Below, piece after piece: positions 36,141 through 51,238 of a DNA stretch of 64,000 nt. Each line of letters opens with the position of its first letter. The stretch's first letter is position 1. This DNA is from an uncultured Planctomycetaceae bacterium (GTDB lineage: Bacteria; Planctomycetota; Planctomycetia; Isosphaerales; Isosphaeraceae), in assembly GCA_963833985.1 (NCBI GenBank), contig CAWIAD010000002.1, positions 2,752,001 through 2,816,000 on the forward strand. The letters are read 5' to 3'. A model generated the notes under the pieces. That model searched no databases, had not been told where the DNA came from, and saw only the letters and a list, made by a program, of their open reading frames with translations. A program made the position numbers and the translations under genes.

Positions 36141-36208
36141 AGGACAAGCAATGTAGCCCTTTTTTCGAGGGCAGGCTGCATTGCCTGTCCTTTACCTTTT
36201 TTACCTTT
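36141..36208. repeat. 51-bp hairpin mini-element (two inverted copies of the CAWTGCNTGTCCT motif) plus junction stutter
   Basis: AGGACAAGCAATGTAGCC (36141-36158) vs GGCTGCATTGCCTGTCCT (36174-36191): 16/18 complementary; TTTACCTTT x2 at 36191-36208. Confidence 0.75.
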
Positions 36209-36370
36209 TCTAGAGGCAGCATGCTGGAACCGCCAAATGAGCACGGGTCAGCAAGTCTTCCCGCCCCCAACTGAGGAAGCTATTTCGTGATATGCCATCT
36301 CAGTTCAGGATGAGATAATAGCCCCGCTACGTTGGCATGATTGAGACCGATCGTTGTCAAGGACCGAGCA

Positions 36371-43609: not shown

Positions 43610-44592
43610 GCCGATTCCGGATCTTGAGCCTTGATGGCGGGGGTATTAAAGGCACCTTCACGGCGTCTTTCCTCGCTGAACTGGAGAGCATGACCAAGAC
43701 ACCAATTCATAAATATTTTGACCTAATAACCGGTACCTCAACCGGCGGGATCATCGCCATTGCCCTCGGCTTGGGAATCCCGGCGTCCGAAATTCTCGAT
43801 TTCTACGTTAAGAAGGGCCCGGAGATTTTCCCCGCCATCGGCATCAAGAAGAAATCTCAGCACTTCCTCCGCTGGATGTTTCGGACCAAGTACGGCCAGA
43901 AATCCCTCTTAAACGCCATCGGCTCGGTGACCGGTAATCGCAAGCTCGGGGACTCGAAAGTGCGGCTTGTCATCCCCTCGTTTAACGCGGTAAACGGCAA
44001 CGTCCAGCTCTTCAAGACTTCGCACCACCCGAGGCTTCGTCGCGATTACCTTCGCCCGGCTGTCGAAGTTGCTCTCGCGACGTCTGCGGCCCCAACCTAC
44101 TTTCCGGCGTTCATCGGTGAGGATGGTCTGGCCTGCATCGACGGTGGTATCTGGTCCAACTGCCCTGCCGCAGTCGGCGTCATCGAAGCCATTTCAGTCC
44201 TTGGCCAGGATCTGAAAGACGTCCATGTTCTCAGTATCGGAACGACGGACGTGCCCTACCACGTCTCAGAGGCACGACGTCAAAAGGGAGGCGTGCTTCG
44301 CTGGGGCCTTTTTAGCAAAGACTTCATCGGACTCCTGATGCAGGCGCAGATGCGGGCCTCGATTGCACAGGCCAAGGTCATGTTGAACTATGACGAGGAG
44401 CCCCACAGGTTCCACCGCATCGACGAGGTGACCAACCCGTCACGCTTCAGCTTGGATAGCGTCTCCGGGATTCCCGACTTGAGGGCCCTGGGTGCCGAGA
44501 CCGCCCGACACCAGGCAAGCGTTGTCCAGCGCCTCTTTCTGGACAAGGAAGCCGACCCCTTTGTCCCTTGCCATTCCCTCCCCTGTCTCTAG
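43606..44592 (+). CDS. Patatin-like phospholipase CBASS effector (CapV-like)
   Basis: ILSLDGGGIKG, FDLITGTSTGG (GxSxG), ATSAAPTYF, DGG; GTGA overlap with E2 stop (alternative in-frame ATG at 43591). Confidence 0.92.
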   Translation: MSRFRILSLDGGGIKGTFTASFLAELESMTKTPIHKYFDLITGTSTGGIIAIALGLGIPASEILDFYVKKGPEIFPAIGIKKKSQHFLRWMFRTKYGQKSLLNAIGSVTGNRKLGDSKVRLVIPSFNAVNGNVQLFKTSHHPRLRRDYLRPAVEVALATSAAPTYFPAFIGEDGLACIDGGIWSNCPAAVGVIEAISVLGQDLKDVHVLSIGTTDVPYHVSEARRQKGGVLRWGLFSKDFIGLLMQAQMRASIAQAKVMLNYDEEPHRFHRIDEVTNPSRFSLDSVSGIPDLRALGAETARHQASVVQRLFLDKEADPFVPCHSLPCL

Positions 44593-44750
44593 GAAGGTCC
44601 CAGCGATCAAGGCAGCGTCATGGAAGCGGAAGCGAAGCTTCGGTGACATCCTTCGGCAGCTTCGCCTAGCCATCGGCGTGAACGATGCAGTCTCTTAGCG
44701 TACAACTTTTCCCGTTTCCAGGTCACTGTTCGTCCTAGCCGGGGACTATC

Positions 44751-45137
44751 ATGCCCAGCCGAAAGCCGCTAATTCCGCCAAGCTGGCAGCGTTACGACGT
44801 GAGTCACCTTGTGCAGGAACACATCAACTCGTGGCAGGCCTTTTGCCGCCAAAGGGATGTGCTTCAACAAGGCCCCCTCGGGCACTCCCCAGGCGAGATG
44901 CATCGGAAGAACCGAGAGCGTCCTCGCTTGGAAACCACAACTAAATTGCTCGACATCGCCCTGCGAGTGACCGGACCCGTGCGATTCAACGGCCGGCTCT
45001 ACAAGTCCTCGGAATCTACGTACATGGGCACCGAGCCAGCCGATGGCTCGGTGCAAGCTGCCGAAGGCTTGTTCGTCGAGATCCATTCACCAATTAACGG
45101 CCTAGGCCGACTCGCACCGGCAAAGCAACGCAGGTAA
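44751..45137 (+). CDS. Hypothetical protein
   Basis: 128-aa ATG ORF co-oriented within the island; no motif recognised. Confidence 0.4.
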   Translation: MPSRKPLIPPSWQRYDVSHLVQEHINSWQAFCRQRDVLQQGPLGHSPGEMHRKNRERPRLETTTKLLDIALRVTGPVRFNGRLYKSSESTYMGTEPADGSVQAAEGLFVEIHSPINGLGRLAPAKQRR

Positions 45138-45183
45138 CCTGCCACGCCACCGACAGCGAGGCCTTAGGAGCCCTTATCCCCCA

Positions 45184-46035
45184 ATGCTTTCCGTACGTGT
45201 AATCACGTTCCCTGGACTAAGAGGTGCAGACTTTGCTTACAACTACGTTGGCACCGACGATGGAGTCGCGATTCATTTCTCAGTCGATATGGCCCAGGTC
45301 TTTGGCGAGCGTCAAGCGTTTAAGCTAGTTGAGGAACGGATCCAAAAGACTGAGCTTGACTGGGTTAGGCCCGGAGCCGACCGCTGGGTCATATACCTCG
45401 ATAGACTTAAACGACCAGGTACCCCCTTAGCTGAGCTAGATTGGCTTCAAGGCAAGGCGGAAGTTAGACCTGAGCTAGACGTAATAGTGAGCCCCCCAAA
45501 TCTCTCGGGCTTGATGGCATCTTGCCCGCCTCAAGGTCGAGTAATCCTTTTCATTCGACCGGAGAACGTCATGAGCAGCGTGGCCGGTATCCCACTCTTT
45601 TACAGCTATTCACATGCAAATGAGCGGTACAGGAAACAATTGGAAACCCACCTTAGCACCCTAAAGCGGGAAGGCCTTATATCAGAATGGCATGACCGCG
45701 CTATTACACCGGGCAGTGAATGGAACAAGGAGATCCGGAGGCAACTTGAAACCGCCCGCACCATCCTTCTCTTGGTCAGTGCCGACTTTATCCATTCCGA
45801 GTTCTGCTCGAGCGTTGAGCTAAAACGAGCCATGGAGCGCCATGAGTCCGGCGATGCCCGCGTCATTCCCATTATCGTAAAGCCCTGCGATTGGCACTCA
45901 GCCCCCTTTGGGAAGCTCCAGGCGCTGCCGAAGGATGGAAAGGCGATTACGACCTGGAAGAACAAGGACGGAGCTTACCTTGATATCGTAAACGGCATAC
46001 GCCGTGTCATTGAGGAGTTGAACGAGCACCCTTAG
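45184..46035 (+). CDS. TIR-domain protein with unrecognised N-terminal region (alternative start 45571)
   Basis: LFYSYSH, WHDRAITPGSEW, LLLVSADFIHSEFCSSVEL (catalytic-position Glu), VIPIIVKPCDW, LQALP. Confidence 0.85.
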   Translation: MLSVRVITFPGLRGADFAYNYVGTDDGVAIHFSVDMAQVFGERQAFKLVEERIQKTELDWVRPGADRWVIYLDRLKRPGTPLAELDWLQGKAEVRPELDVIVSPPNLSGLMASCPPQGRVILFIRPENVMSSVAGIPLFYSYSHANERYRKQLETHLSTLKREGLISEWHDRAITPGSEWNKEIRRQLETARTILLLVSADFIHSEFCSSVELKRAMERHESGDARVIPIIVKPCDWHSAPFGKLQALPKDGKAITTWKNKDGAYLDIVNGIRRVIEELNEHP

Positions 46036-46064
46036 ACGCCCCACCGCCGGATTCACGGCTCGAG

Positions 46065-46557
46065 GTGGCAGGGGCAGAACGAGACAAGAGCCAGAAGGCC
46101 AGCACCACGGCTGGGGCGTTGGAGGCGCGTCTGACGACCAATGTCTCTGACCAGATGCTTAAGACGGTGGGTTGTCCCAGCCTTTTACTTACTCTTGTCT
46201 GTCGCGGTACGAAACCCGCTCGCATTCGCGGAGCTGAGCTTAGACTCAAAGGCCCCCAGTTTGTGGCCTTTCTTAAGTCACTTGAGCATGCGTTCGGCAG
46301 CGACTTTGATTACAAGCCTGTCGGGAAGGAACCTCACTCGACCGGCGACTGTGCAGCGGTGTCCTTTCTACCAGCCTCCCGGCCAATTTCACCGAACGGG
46401 TTTATCGTCGAGCCGGATGACGTGTGCCATTTCATCCTACCCGCATTAGGGATCCCAGTTACTTTCGCCGAGAGCCCACCTGACGACCTGTCTGTCGCTG
46501 CTATTTTCTTCGACGAGAGCGAGGAGACAGTCCTTGAAGGCGAGAAGGTCTCTCTCC
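46065..46557 (+). pseudogene. Hypothetical protein apparently truncated at the Y1-element left junction
   Basis: Protein-like ORF runs into (AAGACGAAA)3, giving an artefactual DEKDEKDEK tail. Confidence 0.45.
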
Positions 46558-46660
46558 AAGACGAAAAAGACGAAAAAGACGAAAAAAGGACATGCATTGC
46601 AGTCTTCCGCTGGCCGGGCCGATCTGGTAGATTGCGTGGATCTTGCCAGGAGGGACGGCC

Positions 46661-47696
46661 ATGACGATCGCGCGCTGCGCATCTGGTTGATCCCAGTGTC
46701 ACCCGCTGGTATCACTGCATCACGCGGTGCGTGCGGCGGGCGTTTCTGCTGGGGGAGGGCGGGCTCGACCGCAAGGAATGGATCGAACGGCGAGTCCAGG
46801 AACTTGCGGAGATCTTCTCCGTGGCCGTGGGCGGGTTCGCCATCCTCGATAACCACCTGCACCTGCTGGTGCGGCTCGACCCGGATGTGGCGGCGGGGTG
46901 GTCGGATGAAGAGGTCGTGCGGCGCTGGGGGAGGCTGTTTCCGCCCCGCGACAGGGCGCGGCGGGCACTGCCGGTCTCGGACGGGTGGGTCCAGGAACGG
47001 CTGAAAGACGTGAAGTGGGTGGCGATGGCACGCCAGCGGCTGCAAGGCCTGAGCTGGTTCATGAAGTGCCTGAAGGAGCCGCTGTCGCGACTGGCCAACC
47101 GCGAGGAGAACACCCGCGGGGCGTTCTTCGAGGGGCGGTTCCAGAGCGTGGCGATCCTGGATGAGGAATCTCTGCTGGCGACGTGTGCTTATATCGATCT
47201 GAACCCGGTGGCGGCGGGGATCGCCCAGGTTCCGGAAGCCAGCCCGCACACGTCGATCAAGCAGCGAGTGGAGCACGTGCAGGAACAGGAGCGCGCGGAG
47301 GATCTGCAAGCCGCGAAGCAAGGCAGCGTGGCGGGGTCGAAAGCGGCGAGTGGGATGGAGGAGCAGCTCTGGCTCTGTCCGATCGAGGACCGCCGGGGGC
47401 TCGACTCGATGCGGGAAGGGATGCTCGAGGGGTTCTCGCTGGGGAACTACCTGCTGCTTGTGGACTACACCGGGCGGCTGTTTCGCGAAGGGAAGGCGAT
47501 GATCTCGGCGGAGCTGGCCGGGATATTGGAGCGGCTGGGGAGCAACTCGGAGAACTGGCAGGCGCGGCTGCTGAAGCTGGCCGGTGGCCGGCTGCTGGGC
47601 CGGTTCTTTGCGGCGAGCCGGGAACGGCTGCGGGATGTGGCCGGGCGGCTGGGCCGGCATCACCTGGCGAACCTGGGCGGGTGCCCGGCGCGGTGA
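46661..47696 (+). CDS. HUH Y1 tyrosine transposase / RAYT-like nuclease, frameshift near 46675
   Basis: WYHCITRCVRRAFL, ILDNHLHLLV (HUH), LSWFMKCL, FFEGRF, CAYIDLNPVAAG (catalytic Tyr); GGAGG RBS before ATG 46661. Confidence 0.9.
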
Positions 47697-47734
47697 AGCC
47701 GCGGCGAGATGCGCGGCGTGTTGGTCTCAGGTGC

Positions 47735-47917
47735 TGGTCGGCCTCACGGCCGAGGTTGGGGGCTGCACCCGTCCGAACCACGCGCTCACGCACGTGGTCA
47801 CGCGTATCAGCCTGGCGGGATCGCCCAGCCGAGCCACATGATCACGTACATAGGTGCCGACCTGAGCGGAAGTGGAGGCCGCGCCCGTCCGACCCACGCG
47901 CTCACGCACGTGGTCAC
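47735..47917 (-). repeat. One full and one partial inverted copy of the 67-bp repeat found at 24.3 kb
   Basis: Reverse complement of 47735-47801 matches 24323-24389 at 57/67; 47884-47917 repeats the CCACGCGCTCACGCACGTGGTCAC half. Confidence 0.85.
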
Positions 47918-48003
47918 TCACCCCGCGCCAGGCAGATGACGAGATCGCGTGGCGAGCCTTTCGCCGACTGTCATTACAGGTTCGTGGATGACCGCGAGAA
48001 CCA

Positions 48004-48192
48004 TCCGGCCACGGTTCCACGAATGGTGGGCCTCGCGGGGACGCTCGACCCACCCTACCGGGCGGCCAATCCCCGGGCCAGTTCGACGCGCTTCCGGCCA
48101 CGGTTCCAGGAAAGGTGGGCCTCGCGGGGACGCTCGACCCACCCTACCGGGCGGCCAATCCCCGTGCCAGTCCGACGCGCTTCCGGCCACGG
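48004..48192. repeat. 89-bp tandem duplication, each unit containing a GTAG-type REP
   Basis: Units start 48004, 48093, 48182 (partial); minus-strand GTAGGGTGGGTCGAGCGTCCCCGCGAGGCCCACC at 48025-48058 and 48114-48147. Confidence 0.85.
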
Positions 48193-48342
48193 CAACGAGC
48201 ATGGGATTCGGTTGCTGAGCCGATCAAGGGACGCCCTGGGAGGGAGAGAGTCCAATGCCTGTCCTTTCTTCTCTCTTCTCCTTTCTTCTCTCTGTCCTTT
48301 CTTCTTCCTTTCTTCTCTCGGCATGGCGGCCGCCAGGCAGCC

Positions 48343-48821
48343 TCATGTCTTCCTGGGCGTCTTTCGCTTCGACTCCGAGACCGAAGCCTCGCACCGCGCG
48401 ATATACTTCCGCGCGGGTACGCGCCGGATCGTGTCGCCGATCACCTCGAGTGCCAGGTCGTCCAACTTCTTGAAGCGGATGCACGACTTGCCCATGTCGA
48501 GTTTCTTGCCGGTCTGCGCCAGGCCTCCCGAAACGAGTTCGCCTGCTCGCTGTCGGCGTAGACGCACATCAGGTAAAGCGACATGTAATTCTTCTGCGAG
48601 GCAAGCGCCGCGAACGGCAAGGGTTGCTTCGGGTCGCAGTGGTAGCCCGCCGGGTGCACGCGGTGCGGCACATAATACCCGATCATGCCGTACTGGATGC
48701 CTTCTTCGTAGTCCTTGTCCAGGTTCCTGAGAATGACCTGGCGCACTCCCTGGAGCGCGCTGCGGCGATCCTCCGGCAGTGCGGCGAGATACTCTTCAAC
48801 GGTCGCGGGCTTCTCGGGCAT
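48343..48821 (-). CDS. DUF1801 domain protein, frameshift near 48530
   Basis: TVEEYLAALPEDRR, YGMIGYYVP, ALASQKNYMSLY, then LDMGKSCIRFKKLDDL in the next frame. Confidence 0.88.
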
Positions 48822-49478
48822 GGGGCACCTCAGGCGGTGGGGAAGGGTTGGGGACAAGGATGGGGAAGGCTGCGGTCGACATCGTCCTGAGCCGGTGAGC
48901 GGGGGGACCGACATGGTCCTTGAGTAACGCCTGGATCGCCTCCTGATCTCCTGGGTAAGTCGGAAGGCGGCGATGTGGTTGGGCACCTTGACGCGCAGTA
49001 CGAACGGTTCGTCGACCCACTCCCACCCGCGGATCCTGTCCCAGGAATAGAAATTGGTACTCCACAAGAGCCCGTGCTCGCGGAATTCGAGATAGGTAGG
49101 GCGTAGGCAAGGGTACATGCAGACGAGTGCCCCGCAGGTTCCCAGGATCCAGACATCAACCAGATTCATCACGACATCCGTCGTGGTACATGCCCTGCCG
49201 GGGGCAGGGGAGTTAATTGCCACCCGGTGGCTCATGGGGACGATCAGCAGCAAGCCGCAAGCCAGGGCGAGGACTCTCTCCCAGCGTTGCGCACGCGGGC
49301 GAACGGCCGTGTATTGCCGGCTGCCCGCCTGCCTGAGGTGTTGCCAGCGCACCACCCAGCAGTGGCATACGGGAAAGATCATGGGCAGGAACGCCACGCC
49401 CGCGCCGAGCACCAGTGCGACGGCCGCCACCGCGACCATCATTCCCCGGATCGAGAAACGCAGCCAGTGCAACCGCAT
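48796..49478 (-). CDS. Hypothetical membrane protein, probable frameshift near 48955
   Basis: MRLHWLRFSIRGMMVAVAAVAL leader, TM helices, GGAGGA RBS; 3' end uncertain. Confidence 0.55.
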
Positions 49479-49501
49479 GACGCTTCCTCCGCTTGGTTCG
49501 C

Positions 49502-49939
49502 TCAATGGGCGCGCTTCAGCCTGCGCCAGGTCTCGTCGACGTCGATGGCCGTCCCGGGGGCGGACCTGATGGATAGCTCATCCCCCTTGTACTTGAGGAT
49601 GTAGGCGTATTCGTTGCCCTTGAGGTGGTCGAAGCCCGGGCTCACGAACTCGCATTTCTCTCGGTAGATGTCGCCGCTGAGCGTCCACGTTCCGCCCGCG
49701 GTGGCCAGCACGGTCATCTTCTTGGTGTCGTAGGTGACCCACGTGAAATGGGTGGAAGTGACGTGCTTGATGCTCTTCACGTCCTTGAATTGCGCGGGGA
49801 GCCGCAGTGAGAGGTTCATCCAGGTGCCGAGTATCCCGTTCTTGATGCGCTCCTCGTCCGGCTCCGCTCCATTCCCGCCAGCCGCCCGCAGAGCCACCAG
49901 CCCGATCGCGATGCCGATGAGCAGCCTCTTCATGGTCAT
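49502..49939 (-). CDS. Secreted hypothetical protein (lipocalin-like beta-barrel)
   Basis: Signal peptide; ILGTW, GGTWTLSGDIYRE, DETWRR. Confidence 0.7.
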   Translation of the reverse strand: MTMKRLLIGIAIGLVALRAAGGNGAEPDEERIKNGILGTWMNLSLRLPAQFKDVKSIKHVTSTHFTWVTYDTKKMTVLATAGGTWTLSGDIYREKCEFVSPGFDHLKGNEYAYILKYKGDELSIRSAPGTAIDVDETWRRLKRAH

Positions 49940-49984
49940 GCCCCTTCCTGTCCGATGTCACCCGCAGCCGCGTGCGGCGCAACG

Positions 49985-51238
49985 TTATTTGTGGAATTCA
50001 GGCGCGGGCAAGAAACGATTGTCGTGCAGGTCTCCATGCTCGTTGAAGTAGCGCTTGCGCTTGGCCGAGTTCTGATAGAAAGTGGTCAAGGACGGGTAGG
50101 CCAGCAGCAGGACCAGGACCAGAACGTATGCCGGCCGGCCCAGCCGGGCGCGCACCACCCGCGTGCCCTCGGCGATCATCAGGTAAAACGGAGGCACGAG
50201 CTCGATCATCAGGCGACCATGCAAGGGATATTTTCTCAGGCCGGCGGCCGCCACCGCCAGCAAAATCGGCAGCGTGAGGACGAGCCATGCCGCGCCGTCC
50301 CGCGCGGCCATTGAGCCGGCACCGATCAGCAGCAGCACGATGGGCAAGGCCACCCACCAGGCCGGCAGCACGGGTGCCAGCAGGTTGAGCGGGTTGACGA
50401 AGATCTCCAGCAGCACTCCCGCCACCTTCACCACGTCCGCCCAGCCTGACGGCGGCAAGGGCAAGAAAGCAAAGTTCCAGAACACATACATGGAGGTCGC
50501 GGGATGCAGCAAGGCGTGTGATGCCCGGTACGCCAGGGTAAAGTTCAGGGTCCAGCCCGCGGCGATGGCCAGCAGCCAGCCGACTTCGGCCCACGCTCGT
50601 TTTGACAGCCGGTTGATCAGCAGGGCCGTGCCGCACCCGGCGATCACGAACGACGAAGAGAACGAGAACCAGGGGGCCGCAACCATGAGCACGACGAGCG
50701 CCGCCAGCGCTCTGCCGCGCAGCGCGCCGTCGAGCCATTGCAGGCTCAGCAGCGTGATCGCCAGCCCGATCAGCAGATCGCAGGAATATGGCTTCAGCTC
50801 GCTGGAGTAATAGACCATGTCGTCCGACAGGGCAAAGAGCACCAGGGCGACCATCGCGGGCCCGGGCGCGAGCAACCGGAAGGCCAGCCGCTTGAACAGC
50901 CAGAGTGACGCGATGCCGCAGATGAGCGGGACCAGGCGCGTGGCGTAGCCCGAGGTCCCAAGGAGCGTCACGATCACCCGCTCGACGATCACGAAGCCGA
51001 AAGGCGCGAGCTGGTCGCCGCTGAGACAGGTGGAGAAGTCGAGGATCCGCACTCCGATGAAGTTGCTCAGAAGCGAGCCCTCGTCCATCCAGTAGGGGCG
51101 GTTCCAGAGATACGCCACAACCCGCAGCAGCACACCCAGCCAGCAGAGATCCTCGACCGGATGATCCCTGAGGGCCAGCCAGAGGGGTCGCAGGTCGACC
51201 TCCATGGAGAGGATTCGCCGGGACAATCCCATGAGCAT
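49985..51238 (-). CDS. GT-C fold membrane glycosyltransferase (ArnT/PMT-like), start uncertain
   Basis: RPYWMDEGS, APFGF, TRLVPLICG, YYSSELKPYSCD, many TM helices. Confidence 0.8.
   Translation of the reverse strand: MLMGLSRRILSMEVDLRPLWLALRDHPVEDLCWLGVLLRVVAYLWNRPYWMDEGSLLSNFIGVRILDFSTCLSGDQLAPFGFVIVERVIVTLLGTSGYATRLVPLICGIASLWLFKRLAFRLLAPGPAMVALVLFALSDDMVYYSSELKPYSCDLLIGLAITLLSLQWLDGALRGRALAALVVLMVAAPWFSFSSSFVIAGCGTALLINRLSKRAWAEVGWLLAIAAGWTLNFTLAYRASHALLHPATSMYVFWNFAFLPLPPSGWADVVKVAGVLLEIFVNPLNLLAPVLPAWWVALPIVLLLIGAGSMAARDGAAWLVLTLPILLAVAAAGLRKYPLHGRLMIELVPPFYLMIAEGTRVVRARLGRPAYVLVLVLLLAYPSLTTFYQNSAKRKRYFNEHGDLHDNRFLPAPEFHK

Follow-up and report, generated by a model that had tools for sequence, protein, structure and literature searches.

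Tip-anchored stutters around a defective copy of a multi-copy HUH/Y1 element with inverted tips, possible scars of its own enzyme

The 64,000-nt stretch of DNA analyzed here (the window) contains a defective copy of a multi-copy HUH/Y1 element with inverted tips, and the nested short repeats outside those tips (stutters) are, on balance, likely to be scars left by the element's own enzyme. We know of no long TnpA-REP-like Y1 enzyme that has been studied at the bench; the tips and stutters supply candidate DNA sites for these enzymes and hint at where the enzyme acts. Array growth at a defined junction would also serve as a simple read-out for the 2012 prime-and-rejoin model, which to our knowledge has never been shown in cells. 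In large environmental genomes, the stutters additionally point to an origin of rapid repeat variation at single loci and of changes to gene ends.

Layout of the window element

The window element is 1.68 kb long, with its gene placed between inverted tips, GGACAKGCATTG, at 46588 and 48264. The 15-nt motif AAAGGACAKGCATTG is present at 46585–46599 (plus strand), at 48253–48267 (minus strand) and, with one mismatch, at 36179–36193 (minus strand); these three occurrences compare with 0.11 expected, and three were reached in 0 of 100 shuffles. The arms that flank the gene, GAAAAAAGGACATGCATTG and GAAGAAAGGACAGGCATTG, match at 17 of 19 positions, and the agreement is 74% over 39 nt.

The left tip, GGACATGCATTG (46588–46599, plus strand), forms the 15-nt motif together with the AAA at 46585–46587, and its GGACA marks the start of homology among the left ends of 12 paralogues. 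A conserved leader runs from the tip to the ATG (46600–46660, plus strand), as seen in a gapless alignment of 12 left ends, so that 73 nt separate the left tip from the start codon; the left-end profile (nhmmer) matches C2:2798586–2798663 with an E-value of 1.9e-17. The left outer stutter (46558–46587, plus strand) abuts the left tip and is made of (AAGACGAAA)x3.2 and an A run, where the tandem repeat itself has a period of 9 and 100% matches at 46558–46586. This stutter encodes DEKDEKDEK, the last codons of an orphan ORF (46065–46664) for which 40 other genomes of the same family yielded no homologue.

Downstream of the stop codon, a GC-rich 45-nt hairpin unit (CCACGCGCTCACGCACGTGG type; repeat family D2) is present three times (47757–47917, plus strand), and a repeat search located an 89-nt unit with the palindrome GGTGGGCCTCGCGGGGACGCTCGACCCACC in 2.1 copies (48004–48192, plus strand). 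Arrays of the 45-nt unit lie 3′ of the gene in all paralogues, and at least four copies of the 89-nt unit are found in paralogue cp3. The right tip, identified by motif search, is inverted (48253–48267, minus strand; AAAGGACAGGCATTG when read on the minus strand) and begins directly past the position where homology to paralogues cp1 and cp3 changes (..GAGTC). In the right outer stutter (48268–48319, minus strand), the flank units measure 8, 11 and 14 nt and every one of them is followed by 3–5 nt of tip start; the tract at 48259–48321 comprises four uneven copies (family D3; period 17, 2.7 copies, 92%). On the minus strand, the tract reads GAGAGAAGAAA–GGA–AGAAGAAA–GGACA–GAGAGAAGAAA–GGA–GAAGAGAGAAGAAA–GGACAGGCATTG, which is a flank unit followed by the first 3–5 nt of the tip, iterated.

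A miniature doublet (36142–36209, no strand assigned) includes the motif at 36179 as one of its arms; its two inverted tip prefixes (49 bp, 36142–36190) are followed directly outside by (TTTACCTTT)x2.1 at 36191–36209. The sequence-only reading of this DNA had described three repeats of AAGACGAAA outside the left end, four uneven copies at the right end and a third motif at 36179 with its own stutter, all of which agree with the coordinates above; each tip does carry an outward stutter of its own, built from local flank and tip start. Comparison of the left and right flanks with 13 genomes of the genus gave no uninterrupted orthologous locus fixing the element boundary, and Rfam returned no family at gathering score for 44000–50000.

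The transposase gene and its product

The tnpA-Y1 gene (46661–47696, plus strand) begins with an ATG at 46661 and ends with a stop codon at 47694–47696. One extra base near 46673–46676 shifts the frame, which is open from 46665 to the stop, and eleven paralogues are in frame at that point (ATGACGATYGC...GCGCATCTGG). The window copy is thus defective, its frame broken just after the ATG, and any activity here would have to act in trans. The neighbouring DUF1801 gene is also frameshifted.

The window copy scores 22.1 bits (E 1.7e-4) against the Pfam family Y1_Tnp (PF01797), for which the cut-off is 23, and a precomputed PF01797 match exists for many close homologues. The HUH motif, H64-L65-H66 (DNHLHLL), is encoded at 46854–46862 and is located on strand E64–71 of the structural model; H64 is kept in at least 90% of 23 aligned family members. 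The putative catalytic residue, Tyr176 in AYIDLNPV (47190–47192), lies on helix 167–183 of the model, and its position is occupied by F or A in 3 of the 23 aligned representatives.

Searching the PDB by sequence gave no match at E <= 1, and we therefore used a fold search. The AF2 model has a pLDDT of 88.4, the modelled protein in the fold match being paralogue cp2. As judged by Foldseek against the PDB, the best match of cp2 is TnpA-REP (4er8_A; E 6.3e-5, TMt 0.68), followed by transposase chains of ISDra2, IS200 and IS608 at a probability of 1.00. The NCBIfam model REP_Tyr_transpos gives E 4.9e-10 and 39.5 bits (cut-off 80), transpos_IS200 gives 14.8 bits (cut-off 55), and the JGI name for close homologues is RayT. 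The protein has 344 aa, with about 90 helical residues between strands 64–71 and 160–164 and a helical tail at 197–343. Judged from the model, the encoded protein has the HUH/Y1 fold and is of the long TnpA-REP-like kind, for which we count 9,346 cluster representatives at E <= 0.001. The HUH motif, Tyr176, the fold match and the 17/19 arm match bear out the earlier description of a RAYT-like HUH/Y1 gene between inverted tips.

Tips and stutters in the genome

The genome contains 13 full-length paralogues, at 87–93% amino-acid identity, and about 30 fragments; the median dN/dS among the 13 full-length copies is 0.14. Allowing up to 2 mismatches, the tip motif is matched 52 times, compared to 16 times for a reversed control. 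Solo tips are found as well as six inverted doublets of 46–53 bp, three of which have the same inner sequence. The hairpin doublets are stuttered on both sides, and tips that have no inverted partner are also stuttered. We also examined strand bias relative to replication, for which the GC skew was too weak in both contigs to place the origin or terminus.

Nine arrays hold 40 tip-prefix copies of 5–72 nt, 23 of which are 5 nt long. Each array is composed of a copy of the local flank followed by the first n nt of the tip, the fillers being locus-specific flank copies. At least two extra GGACA occur within 150 nt upstream of 9/20 left tips, as against 0.68% of 20,000 random windows, and among the 12 left ends that adjoin a gene, 5 are without any tip-prefix copy of at least 5 nt. 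In a 557-nt case, an identical left end is repeated with the same 11-nt filler (C2:3954754 and 3955311). Filler lengths peak at 4 and at 9–12 nt within a range of 2 to 77; they cluster but vary, and a fixed outer break point was rejected on that ground. Comparing the outer 10 nt of the left side with those of the right side of the same element gives a mean agreement of 4.4 of 10 positions (n = 16). The same genome provides a control in the form of a DDE-type 928-bp TIR insertion sequence with 7 independent copies, where 13 of 14 flanks show 0 repeated 9-mers.

The 1-base frameshift in the window gene and the other in the DUF1801 gene could hint at indel errors, and the assembly consists of two contigs and is presumably based on long reads. 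An assembly or sequencing artefact in low-complexity DNA is nevertheless extremely improbable as a source of the stutters, since the same architecture is built from different units at 9 loci of the genome and recurs across many taxa that were assembled independently, and the flanks of the control insertion sequence are clean.

The base that precedes the start of a copy is A in 44 of 49 cases, while A makes up 41% of those regions. Nearly every copy, whether true tip or prefix, follows A, often as GAAA, which could be read as repeated insertion of the element into its own target, each prefix being a truncated or one-ended insertion beside a kept target, similar to the re-use of TTAC by IS608. 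Retention of the target at the left flank is established for IS608 among Y1 elements (PMC10288648), and repeated insertion would fit this behaviour. However, the fillers copy the local flank and not a donor, insertions of 5–7 nt are implausible, and units of 557 nt and 72 nt share an identical local filler, and we consider this explanation to have little chance of being correct.

A stronger competitor, though one to which we still give clearly less credence than to an enzymatic origin, is replication slippage or template switching without a nick, where replication would stall at a transposase-bound or folded tip and realignment on a purine-rich flank would duplicate stretches of the junction. 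Such a process agrees with unit end points that vary at both sides, with flanks that are 60–95% purine over 60 nt at many copies, with the hairpin nature of the doublets, and with the existence of pure flank repeats that lack a tip prefix, as in (AAGACGAAA)x3 of the window. It does not readily explain why partnerless tips stutter when 12/13 copies are without a right tip, or why the inverted repeats of the DDE insertion sequence in the same genome are essentially stutter-free. Moreover, arrays are found in non-purine flanks of distant homologues (CGTAATCGT at locus L170 and GATATCAA at L134), and 44/49 copies share their preceding base with the true tip, which likewise argues against slippage.

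Relatives and the status of the right tip

Distant loci were collected with a 6-sequence alignment. Distant homologues from Gammaproteobacteria, Verrucomicrobia and Bdellovibrionota, as well as family relatives, have GGACAYCCA tips, inverted pairs and mirror-image stutters. Among the family relatives, mirror-image arrays are present at L069, L070, L073 and L086, and left arrays at L076, L066, L073 and L084. In 52 distant loci, the density of repeated 9-mers per kb is highest upstream (25.6), lower downstream (12.1) and in the far flank (5.5), and lowest in the ORF (1.1). The association of motif and stutter with this transposase family elsewhere was a test set beforehand, and the arrays in this genome, in relatives and at distant loci all display it.

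We analyzed whether the right inverted motif is the element's own end. Only one of the 13 full copies, the window copy, has an inverted right tip within 4 kb, and the doublets show that inverted tip–tip joints arise alone; both observations would suit a leftover tip from a second, opposite element or from an abutting fold-back product. We nonetheless regard a leftover tip as unlikely, because (i) an inverted tip 150–650 nt past the stop is common in relatives (L069, L070, L073, L086, L078 and L081), (ii) an exact inverted repeat of at least 11 nt that holds the tip is found at 16/52 distant loci, and (iii) a decayed look-alike, GTCAAGYCGTCAC, occupies the same place in cp1 and cp3. Inverted ends, which had been claimed as a trait of the element, stand for the window copy and for relatives, while in this genome they are the exception (1/13 full copies).

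Two other assignments at the 3′ side were revised. The 95-nt two-box module (CGAAGCCAAT...GAACGAACCCAAT) that lies 3′ of 8/13 copies was considered as a right end and proved to be a separate dispersed repeat with 49 pattern matches. The right motif was also considered as an unrelated solo tip, with 12/13 paralogues lacking one, a view that was changed in light of the inverted right tips with mirror stutter in relatives.

Proposed mechanism

Based on the make-up of the arrays, we propose a nick-and-copy origin for the stutters. The enzyme would nick one strand at or just outside a tip, producing a 3′-OH on the flank and a 5′-phosphotyrosine link, and a host polymerase would extend the flank 3′-OH inward, copying between a few and some hundred bases of the element. 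Following a second cut, or by means of the free new end, the phosphotyrosine link would be attacked, adding a further tandem copy of whatever lies between the two break points. Repeated firings with differing end points would yield a nested ladder, at each tip independently. This scheme takes the model published for BIME amplification (PMC3333891, Figure 7B), transfers it to a TIR-type element and lets it stop early. Known chemistry speaks for it (PMC8266576, PMC3333891): HUH enzymes leave a 3′-OH able to prime synthesis, the 5′P-Tyr link can be resolved by any 3′-OH with the right last base, and TnpA-REP requires no more than a dinucleotide for cutting, which can take place up to >400 nt away from where the enzyme binds.

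No single fixed nick site is evident, since fillers (2–77 nt) and prefixes (5–72 nt) both vary. If a simple nick were made precisely at the tip boundary, prefix–prefix joints free of filler would be expected, and the rarity of such joints counts against this. Low-complexity, purine-rich flanks are prone to ordinary slippage, which counts against nick-and-copy.

A more far-reaching and doubtful possibility is that the ladders log successive firings of the enzyme and thereby reveal a third mode of HUH transposon movement. Opposite-strand nicks would be made at both tips, the flank 3′-OH ends would prime inward strand-displacement copy-out, and aborted firings would be resealed as partial tip copies. 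If so, tip arrays would constitute a fast, enzyme-written repeat class able to remodel neighbouring gene ends, for which the DEKDEKDEK tail that the left array encodes for the upstream ORF would be an example.

Comparison with known systems

The window had been put forward as holding a candidate for an undescribed system, whereas the kind of element matches two published descriptions, TnpA-Y1 subclass 2.3 (Quentin et al. 2018, PMC6006769) and TIRtron/TIRYT (Di Nocera, De Gregorio and Rocco 2013, PMC3733652). Subclass 2.3 contains the longest Y1 proteins, with a median of 325 aa (344 aa here), and resembles our protein in its large core insertions, its long two-part C-terminal tail and the class-2 Y---NP motif (YIDLNP here); it is common in Gammaproteobacteria of the Alteromonadales/Chromatiales type (PMC6006769), a source of our distant loci too. 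In the text of that survey, no DNA sites were seen adjoining the gene (PMC6006769), whereas the element and relatives likened here to subclass 2.3 by its published description have inverted tips, GGACAKGCA or GGACAYCCA, stuttered on the outside.

TIRtron/TIRYT elements likewise carry a RAYT-like tyrosine transposase gene within terminal inverted repeats, and their repeats also exist elsewhere as singles, dimers and clusters (PMC3733652), comparable to the doublets and solo tips described here. They differ in their common TIR motif, GGGGWSAS (PMC3733652), and in that both tips are retained in only 1/13 copies of this genome, although several relatives keep both. Of the TIRtron examples, 20/26 belong to subclass 2.1 (PMC6006769), and the words partial, truncated and slippage are absent from the text of PMC3733652.

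The statement that no described mechanism fits was too strong, given that nick, priming, second cut and strand transfer have been modelled for BIME amplification (Ton-Hoang et al. 2012, PMC3333891), which involves the same enzyme superfamily and our best fold match (4ER8). In that model, a host polymerase extends the 3′-OH left by a first cleavage, the newly made strand is cleaved in turn, and the first Tyr-5′P link then comes under attack; a tandem unit is gained in this way, and strains differ in how many units they have (PMC3333891). The units there are whole REP/BIME hairpins beside a single-copy domesticated gene (PMC3333891), in contrast to nested partial copies of tip and flank, anchored at the outer edge of the tip, with a multi-copy gene. 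With respect to events in vivo, tandem copying by cut-and-prime is a model both for BIME and for the present element. Literature searches at the level of main texts brought up no account of partial copies that are nested and anchored at a tip.

The IS200/IS605 elements (IS608, ISDra2) share the HUH/Y1 fold, single-strand chemistry and an orientation-specific relation to a short flank sequence. As described in PMC3333891, their two ends differ from each other and carry subterminal hairpins, inverted termini and duplications are lacking, and the enzymes have 130–155 aa, whereas the present element combines inverted tips and stuttered junctions with an enzyme of 344 aa. The ‘fuzzy ends’ of Replitron-1 (Craig 2023, PMC10288648), an HUH transposon, are similar in that extra sequence and target duplications, both of variable length, occur at one end, which was read as imprecision of the transposition machinery. 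Replitron-1 is, however, eukaryotic with a Rep-type enzyme, and each of its insertions is described with a single tract of extra sequence, on the right, in place of two-sided nested ladders (PMC10288648). Finally, REPIN-RAYT/REPtron systems combine a single-copy, vertically inherited gene with hundreds of GTAG-tagged REP hairpins, in contrast to the 13 full copies and many fragments of this genome, whose 52 tip matches carry no GTAG tag.

Inverted tips and stuttered junctions in the window

A motif search for the 15-nt tip motif AAAGGACAKGCATTG of the HUH/Y1 transposase element gave matches at 46585 (+) and 48253 (−), on either side of the transposase gene, and a match with one mismatch at 36179 (−); 0.11 matches are expected by chance in the window, and three were reached in 0 of 100 shuffles. 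The gene-bracketing pair forms an inverted repeat with 17/19 matches that extends to 39 nt at 74%. Outside the left motif lies the repeat (AAGACGAAA)x3.2 (46558–46586), and outside the right motif a tract of four uneven repeats (48259–48321), which on the minus strand reads GAGAGAAGAAA-GGA-AGAAGAAA-GGACA-GAGAGAAGAAA-GGA-GAAGAGAGAAGAAA-GGACAGGCATTG, i.e. a flank unit plus the first 3–5 nt of the tip, iterated several times. A 49-bp inverted doublet (36142–36190), made up of two tip prefixes, has the third motif as one of its arms and is directly followed by (TTTACCTTT)x2.1. Every part of the motifs and stutters described in the sequence-only reading was thus recovered by the motif search with shuffles and by inverted-repeat and tandem-repeat analysis, and the feature is real and not due to chance.

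The left stutter forms the tail of an orphan ORF directly downstream of a gene for a TIR-domain protein (PF13676, E 9e-15; 45184–46035, +). Beside the right stutter, a DUF1801 gene (48343–49505, −) is split by a frameshift or assembly indel across two overlapping frames, ORF 48441–49505 covering PF08818 profile positions 1–42 and ORF 48343–48567 positions 55–83; the former also has a membrane-like N-terminal part with a weak DUF5673 match.

The transposase and its paralogues

The open frame of the transposase gene (46665–47696) encodes H64-L65-H66 (46854–46862) and Tyr176 in AYIDLNPV (47190–47192). The window copy scores 22.1 bits against Pfam Y1_Tnp, slightly short of the 23-bit cut-off, and NCBIfam REP_Tyr_transpos matches an intact paralogue (cp2) with E 4.9e-10 at a score under its 80-bit cut-off. 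A sequence search of the PDB gave no match at E up to 1. For an AlphaFold2 model built from a 23-sequence alignment (mean pLDDT 88.4), the predicted fold is closest to E. coli TnpA-REP with bound REP hairpin (4er8_A, E 6.3e-5, TMt 0.68), followed by the ISDra2, IS200 and IS608 transposases. Eleven paralogues are in frame as ATG ACG ATY GCN ... GCG CAT CTG, whereas the window copy has one additional base past the fifth codon, and the frame from ATG 46661 hits a stop at 46686–46688. The window copy is broken, the extra base being either a mutation or an assembly error.

The 10.16-Mb genome (two contigs, C1 and C2) contains 47 transposase matches (E up to 0.001), of which 13 are full-length, stop-free copies with 87–93% amino-acid identity to the window copy. 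As judged by pairwise comparison (median dN/dS 0.14, median dS 0.35, dS 0.017 for the closest pair), the copies are maintained by selection, and their multiplication was spread over a long time. In the closest pair, C2:4966011 (−) and C2:6223797 (−), the left ends are identical from CTTGAC to ATG, while tip positions 11–17 differ (ACGCAGC vs ATGTATT) and the outer fillers, the stretches between successive tip prefixes, are wholly different; the tip has either been rewritten faster than the gene or been exchanged between copies. Three copies, C2:801186, C2:6222675 and C2:4163373 (all −), have 1.45–1.8 kb of downstream DNA in common at 93–97% identity, in which an ORF starting VATTAQIAANRRNAAKSTGPKS is a possible passenger gene.

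Left-end arrays

The left end can be aligned without gaps in 12 of the 13 copies, with homology starting at GGACA, 73–76 nt upstream of ATG, and a left-end profile search returned 20 full matches. Nine arrays upstream of left tips hold 40 exact tip-prefix copies (counted from 5 nt), 23 of them 5 nt long and the others 6, 7, 9, 10, 12, 24, 33, 37, 40, 42 or 72 nt. The fillers are copies of each locus's own flank (e.g. GAAGCAGCAA at C2:6223797, AGGTCAAAAAAA at C2:2547749 and AGAAAGAAA at C1:3168171). At the large extreme, ~557 nt are duplicated (C2:3954754 and 3955311): the left end and codons 4–161 come first, after which the 11-nt filler recurs and leads into a second, identical left end. Two or more additional GGACA within 150 nt upstream were found at 9/20 left ends, compared with 0.68% of 20,000 random windows, and the copy start is preceded by A in 44 of 49 cases, A making up 41% of those regions. 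Six miniature doublets (two tip prefixes head to head, 46–53 bp) carry stutters on both outer sides; three of the six share their inner sequence, at different loci.

The right end

Of the 13 copies, that of the window is the only one for which an inverted tip was found within 4 kb downstream; the paralogue cp9 has a one-mismatch match at 3.5 kb, without stutter. The right motif was initially read as an unrelated solo tip, a reading dropped in view of three lines of evidence: (i) homology of the window copy with paralogues cp1 and cp3 spans the hairpin and 89-nt repeats up to ..GAGTC at 48252, where both carry a decayed tip look-alike, GTCAAGYCGTCAC; (ii) relatives from the same bacterial family have inverted tips 175–430 nt past the stop with mirror-image arrays, as at locus L069, whose array has units of 43, 43, 16 and 16 nt, each ending ATGCATGTCC and each then followed by TTTACTTCC, and which the right ends of L070, L073, L086, L078 and L081 resemble; and (iii) an exact inverted repeat of at least 11 nt containing the tip (G/A)GACAYCCA occurs at 16 of 52 distant loci, ~80 nt before the start and ~200 nt past the stop. 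Together these observations argue that the basic family layout is a gene between inverted tips, and that the right tip was lost or has decayed in most copies of this genome.

The 89-nt unit, with palindrome GGTGGGCCTCGCGGGGACGCTCGACCCACC (48004–48192), is present in 2.1 copies in the window vs four or more in cp3 (downstream of C1:2894925). At L170 (Pseudomarimonas salicorniae), both ends carry an identical 9-nt stretch outside the tip (CGTAATCGT), in inverted orientation, which recurs in the stutter fillers and behaves in this element as part of the inverted repeat; C precedes all three stutter joints there.

Generality of the stutter

At thresholds of E 0.001 and 1e-30, the protein family counts 9,346 and 1,069 cluster representatives, respectively. 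Of 41 related genomes including that of the window, 15 contain a member at E up to 1e-20. Using a six-sequence alignment, we fetched 80 distant loci from Shewanella, Endozoicomonas, Thiodiazotropha, Pseudohongiella, Verrucomicrobia, Planctomycetes and Bdellovibrionota; 58 entered the repeat-density sample, and the 52 with enough flank were scored for 9-mers repeated within 150 nt. The density per kb was 25.6 over 400 nt upstream, 12.1 over 1,000 nt downstream, 5.5 for a far flank and 1.1 inside the ORF, and exceeded 20 at 18, 11, 3 and 0 of the 52 loci, respectively. Ladders of filler plus tip prefix were seen in 6/6 loci inspected by eye. Homologue flanks, where the sequence-only reading had proposed looking for the motif with tandem micro-duplications, do contain them.

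The control was a 928-bp insertion sequence whose inverted repeats, GAGGGAGTTTGGAAAGTTG, are of the classical type (C1:2893957–2894901; 8 copies at 99.5–100% identity). No repeated 9-mer was found in 13 of 14 flanks of 7 independent copies. Stuttering is thus not something that inverted repeats, or sequences of this assembly, show in general. One copy of the control element sits 29 nt past the stop of cp3.

Origin of the stutters and relation to known systems

The stutter units span the flank–tip junction, consist of local sequence, and arise at each tip, and also at solo tips, in independent events, which fits an origin in which (i) the Y1 enzyme would break a strand at the tip or just outside it, (ii) short DNA synthesis would start from the freed 3'-OH, and (iii) the product would be resealed onto the 5'-phosphotyrosine-linked strand. 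We lean towards this origin on the basis of the junction sequences. Breakage, 3'-OH priming and rejoining are all established properties of HUH enzymes, and TnpA-REP is reported to need no more than a dinucleotide for cutting, which can occur >400 nt away from its binding site, and to accept foreign 3'-OH ends (passages in PMC3333891, PMC8266576). Its weak points are that neither break point is fixed, as judged by filler and prefix lengths, and that the flanks are purine-rich and prone to plain slippage. At 5 of 12 gene-adjacent left ends, the window's included, such a flank stands without any tip-prefix copy of at least 5 nt. A rival that we consider rather unlikely is slippage without a nick, at a tip that is bound or folded.

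That no described mechanism fits was too strong a claim, since Ton-Hoang et al. had put forward the same order of steps, break, synthesis and resealing, to explain how BIMEs are amplified in tandem (PMC3333891, legend to Figure 7B). Here, in contrast to that model, a multi-copy element provides the substrate, namely its inverted-repeat tip, and nested partial copies are the result. Nor is the system itself undescribed: the protein agrees with TnpA-Y1 subclass 2.3 in length, insertions, tail, Y---NP motif, copy number and host range, flanking structures of that subclass being unreported in the portions of Quentin et al. drawn on here (PMC6006769), and the layout agrees with TIRtron/TIRYT as outlined by Di Nocera et al. 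(excerpts of PMC3733652). The element departs from the REPIN-RAYT definition in being multi-copy, without GTAG and with few repeats, and from that of IS200/IS605 in its inverted tips and long enzyme. The window element is a defective member of a described kind. We found no description of tip-copy ladders in the text of the literature searched, and the junction signature appears to be unpublished, with a published model available for it; the signature makes that prime-and-rejoin model testable, which matters to specialists in transposition.

Other repeats in the genome

A dispersed module of ~95 nt with two boxes, CGAAGCCAAT ... GAACGAACCCAAT, ~81 nt apart (e.g. C2:4964206, C1:3166465 and C2:799341, all −), gives 49 pattern matches genome-wide and lies downstream of 8/13 transposase copies. 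A second hairpin repeat, GGACAGGCATTCTTGCCTGTC (e.g. C1:1082049–1082961 and C2:5714558–5714668), has the core GGACAGGCATT in common with the tips and is itself bordered by short (GGCAGTG)n-type tandem units.
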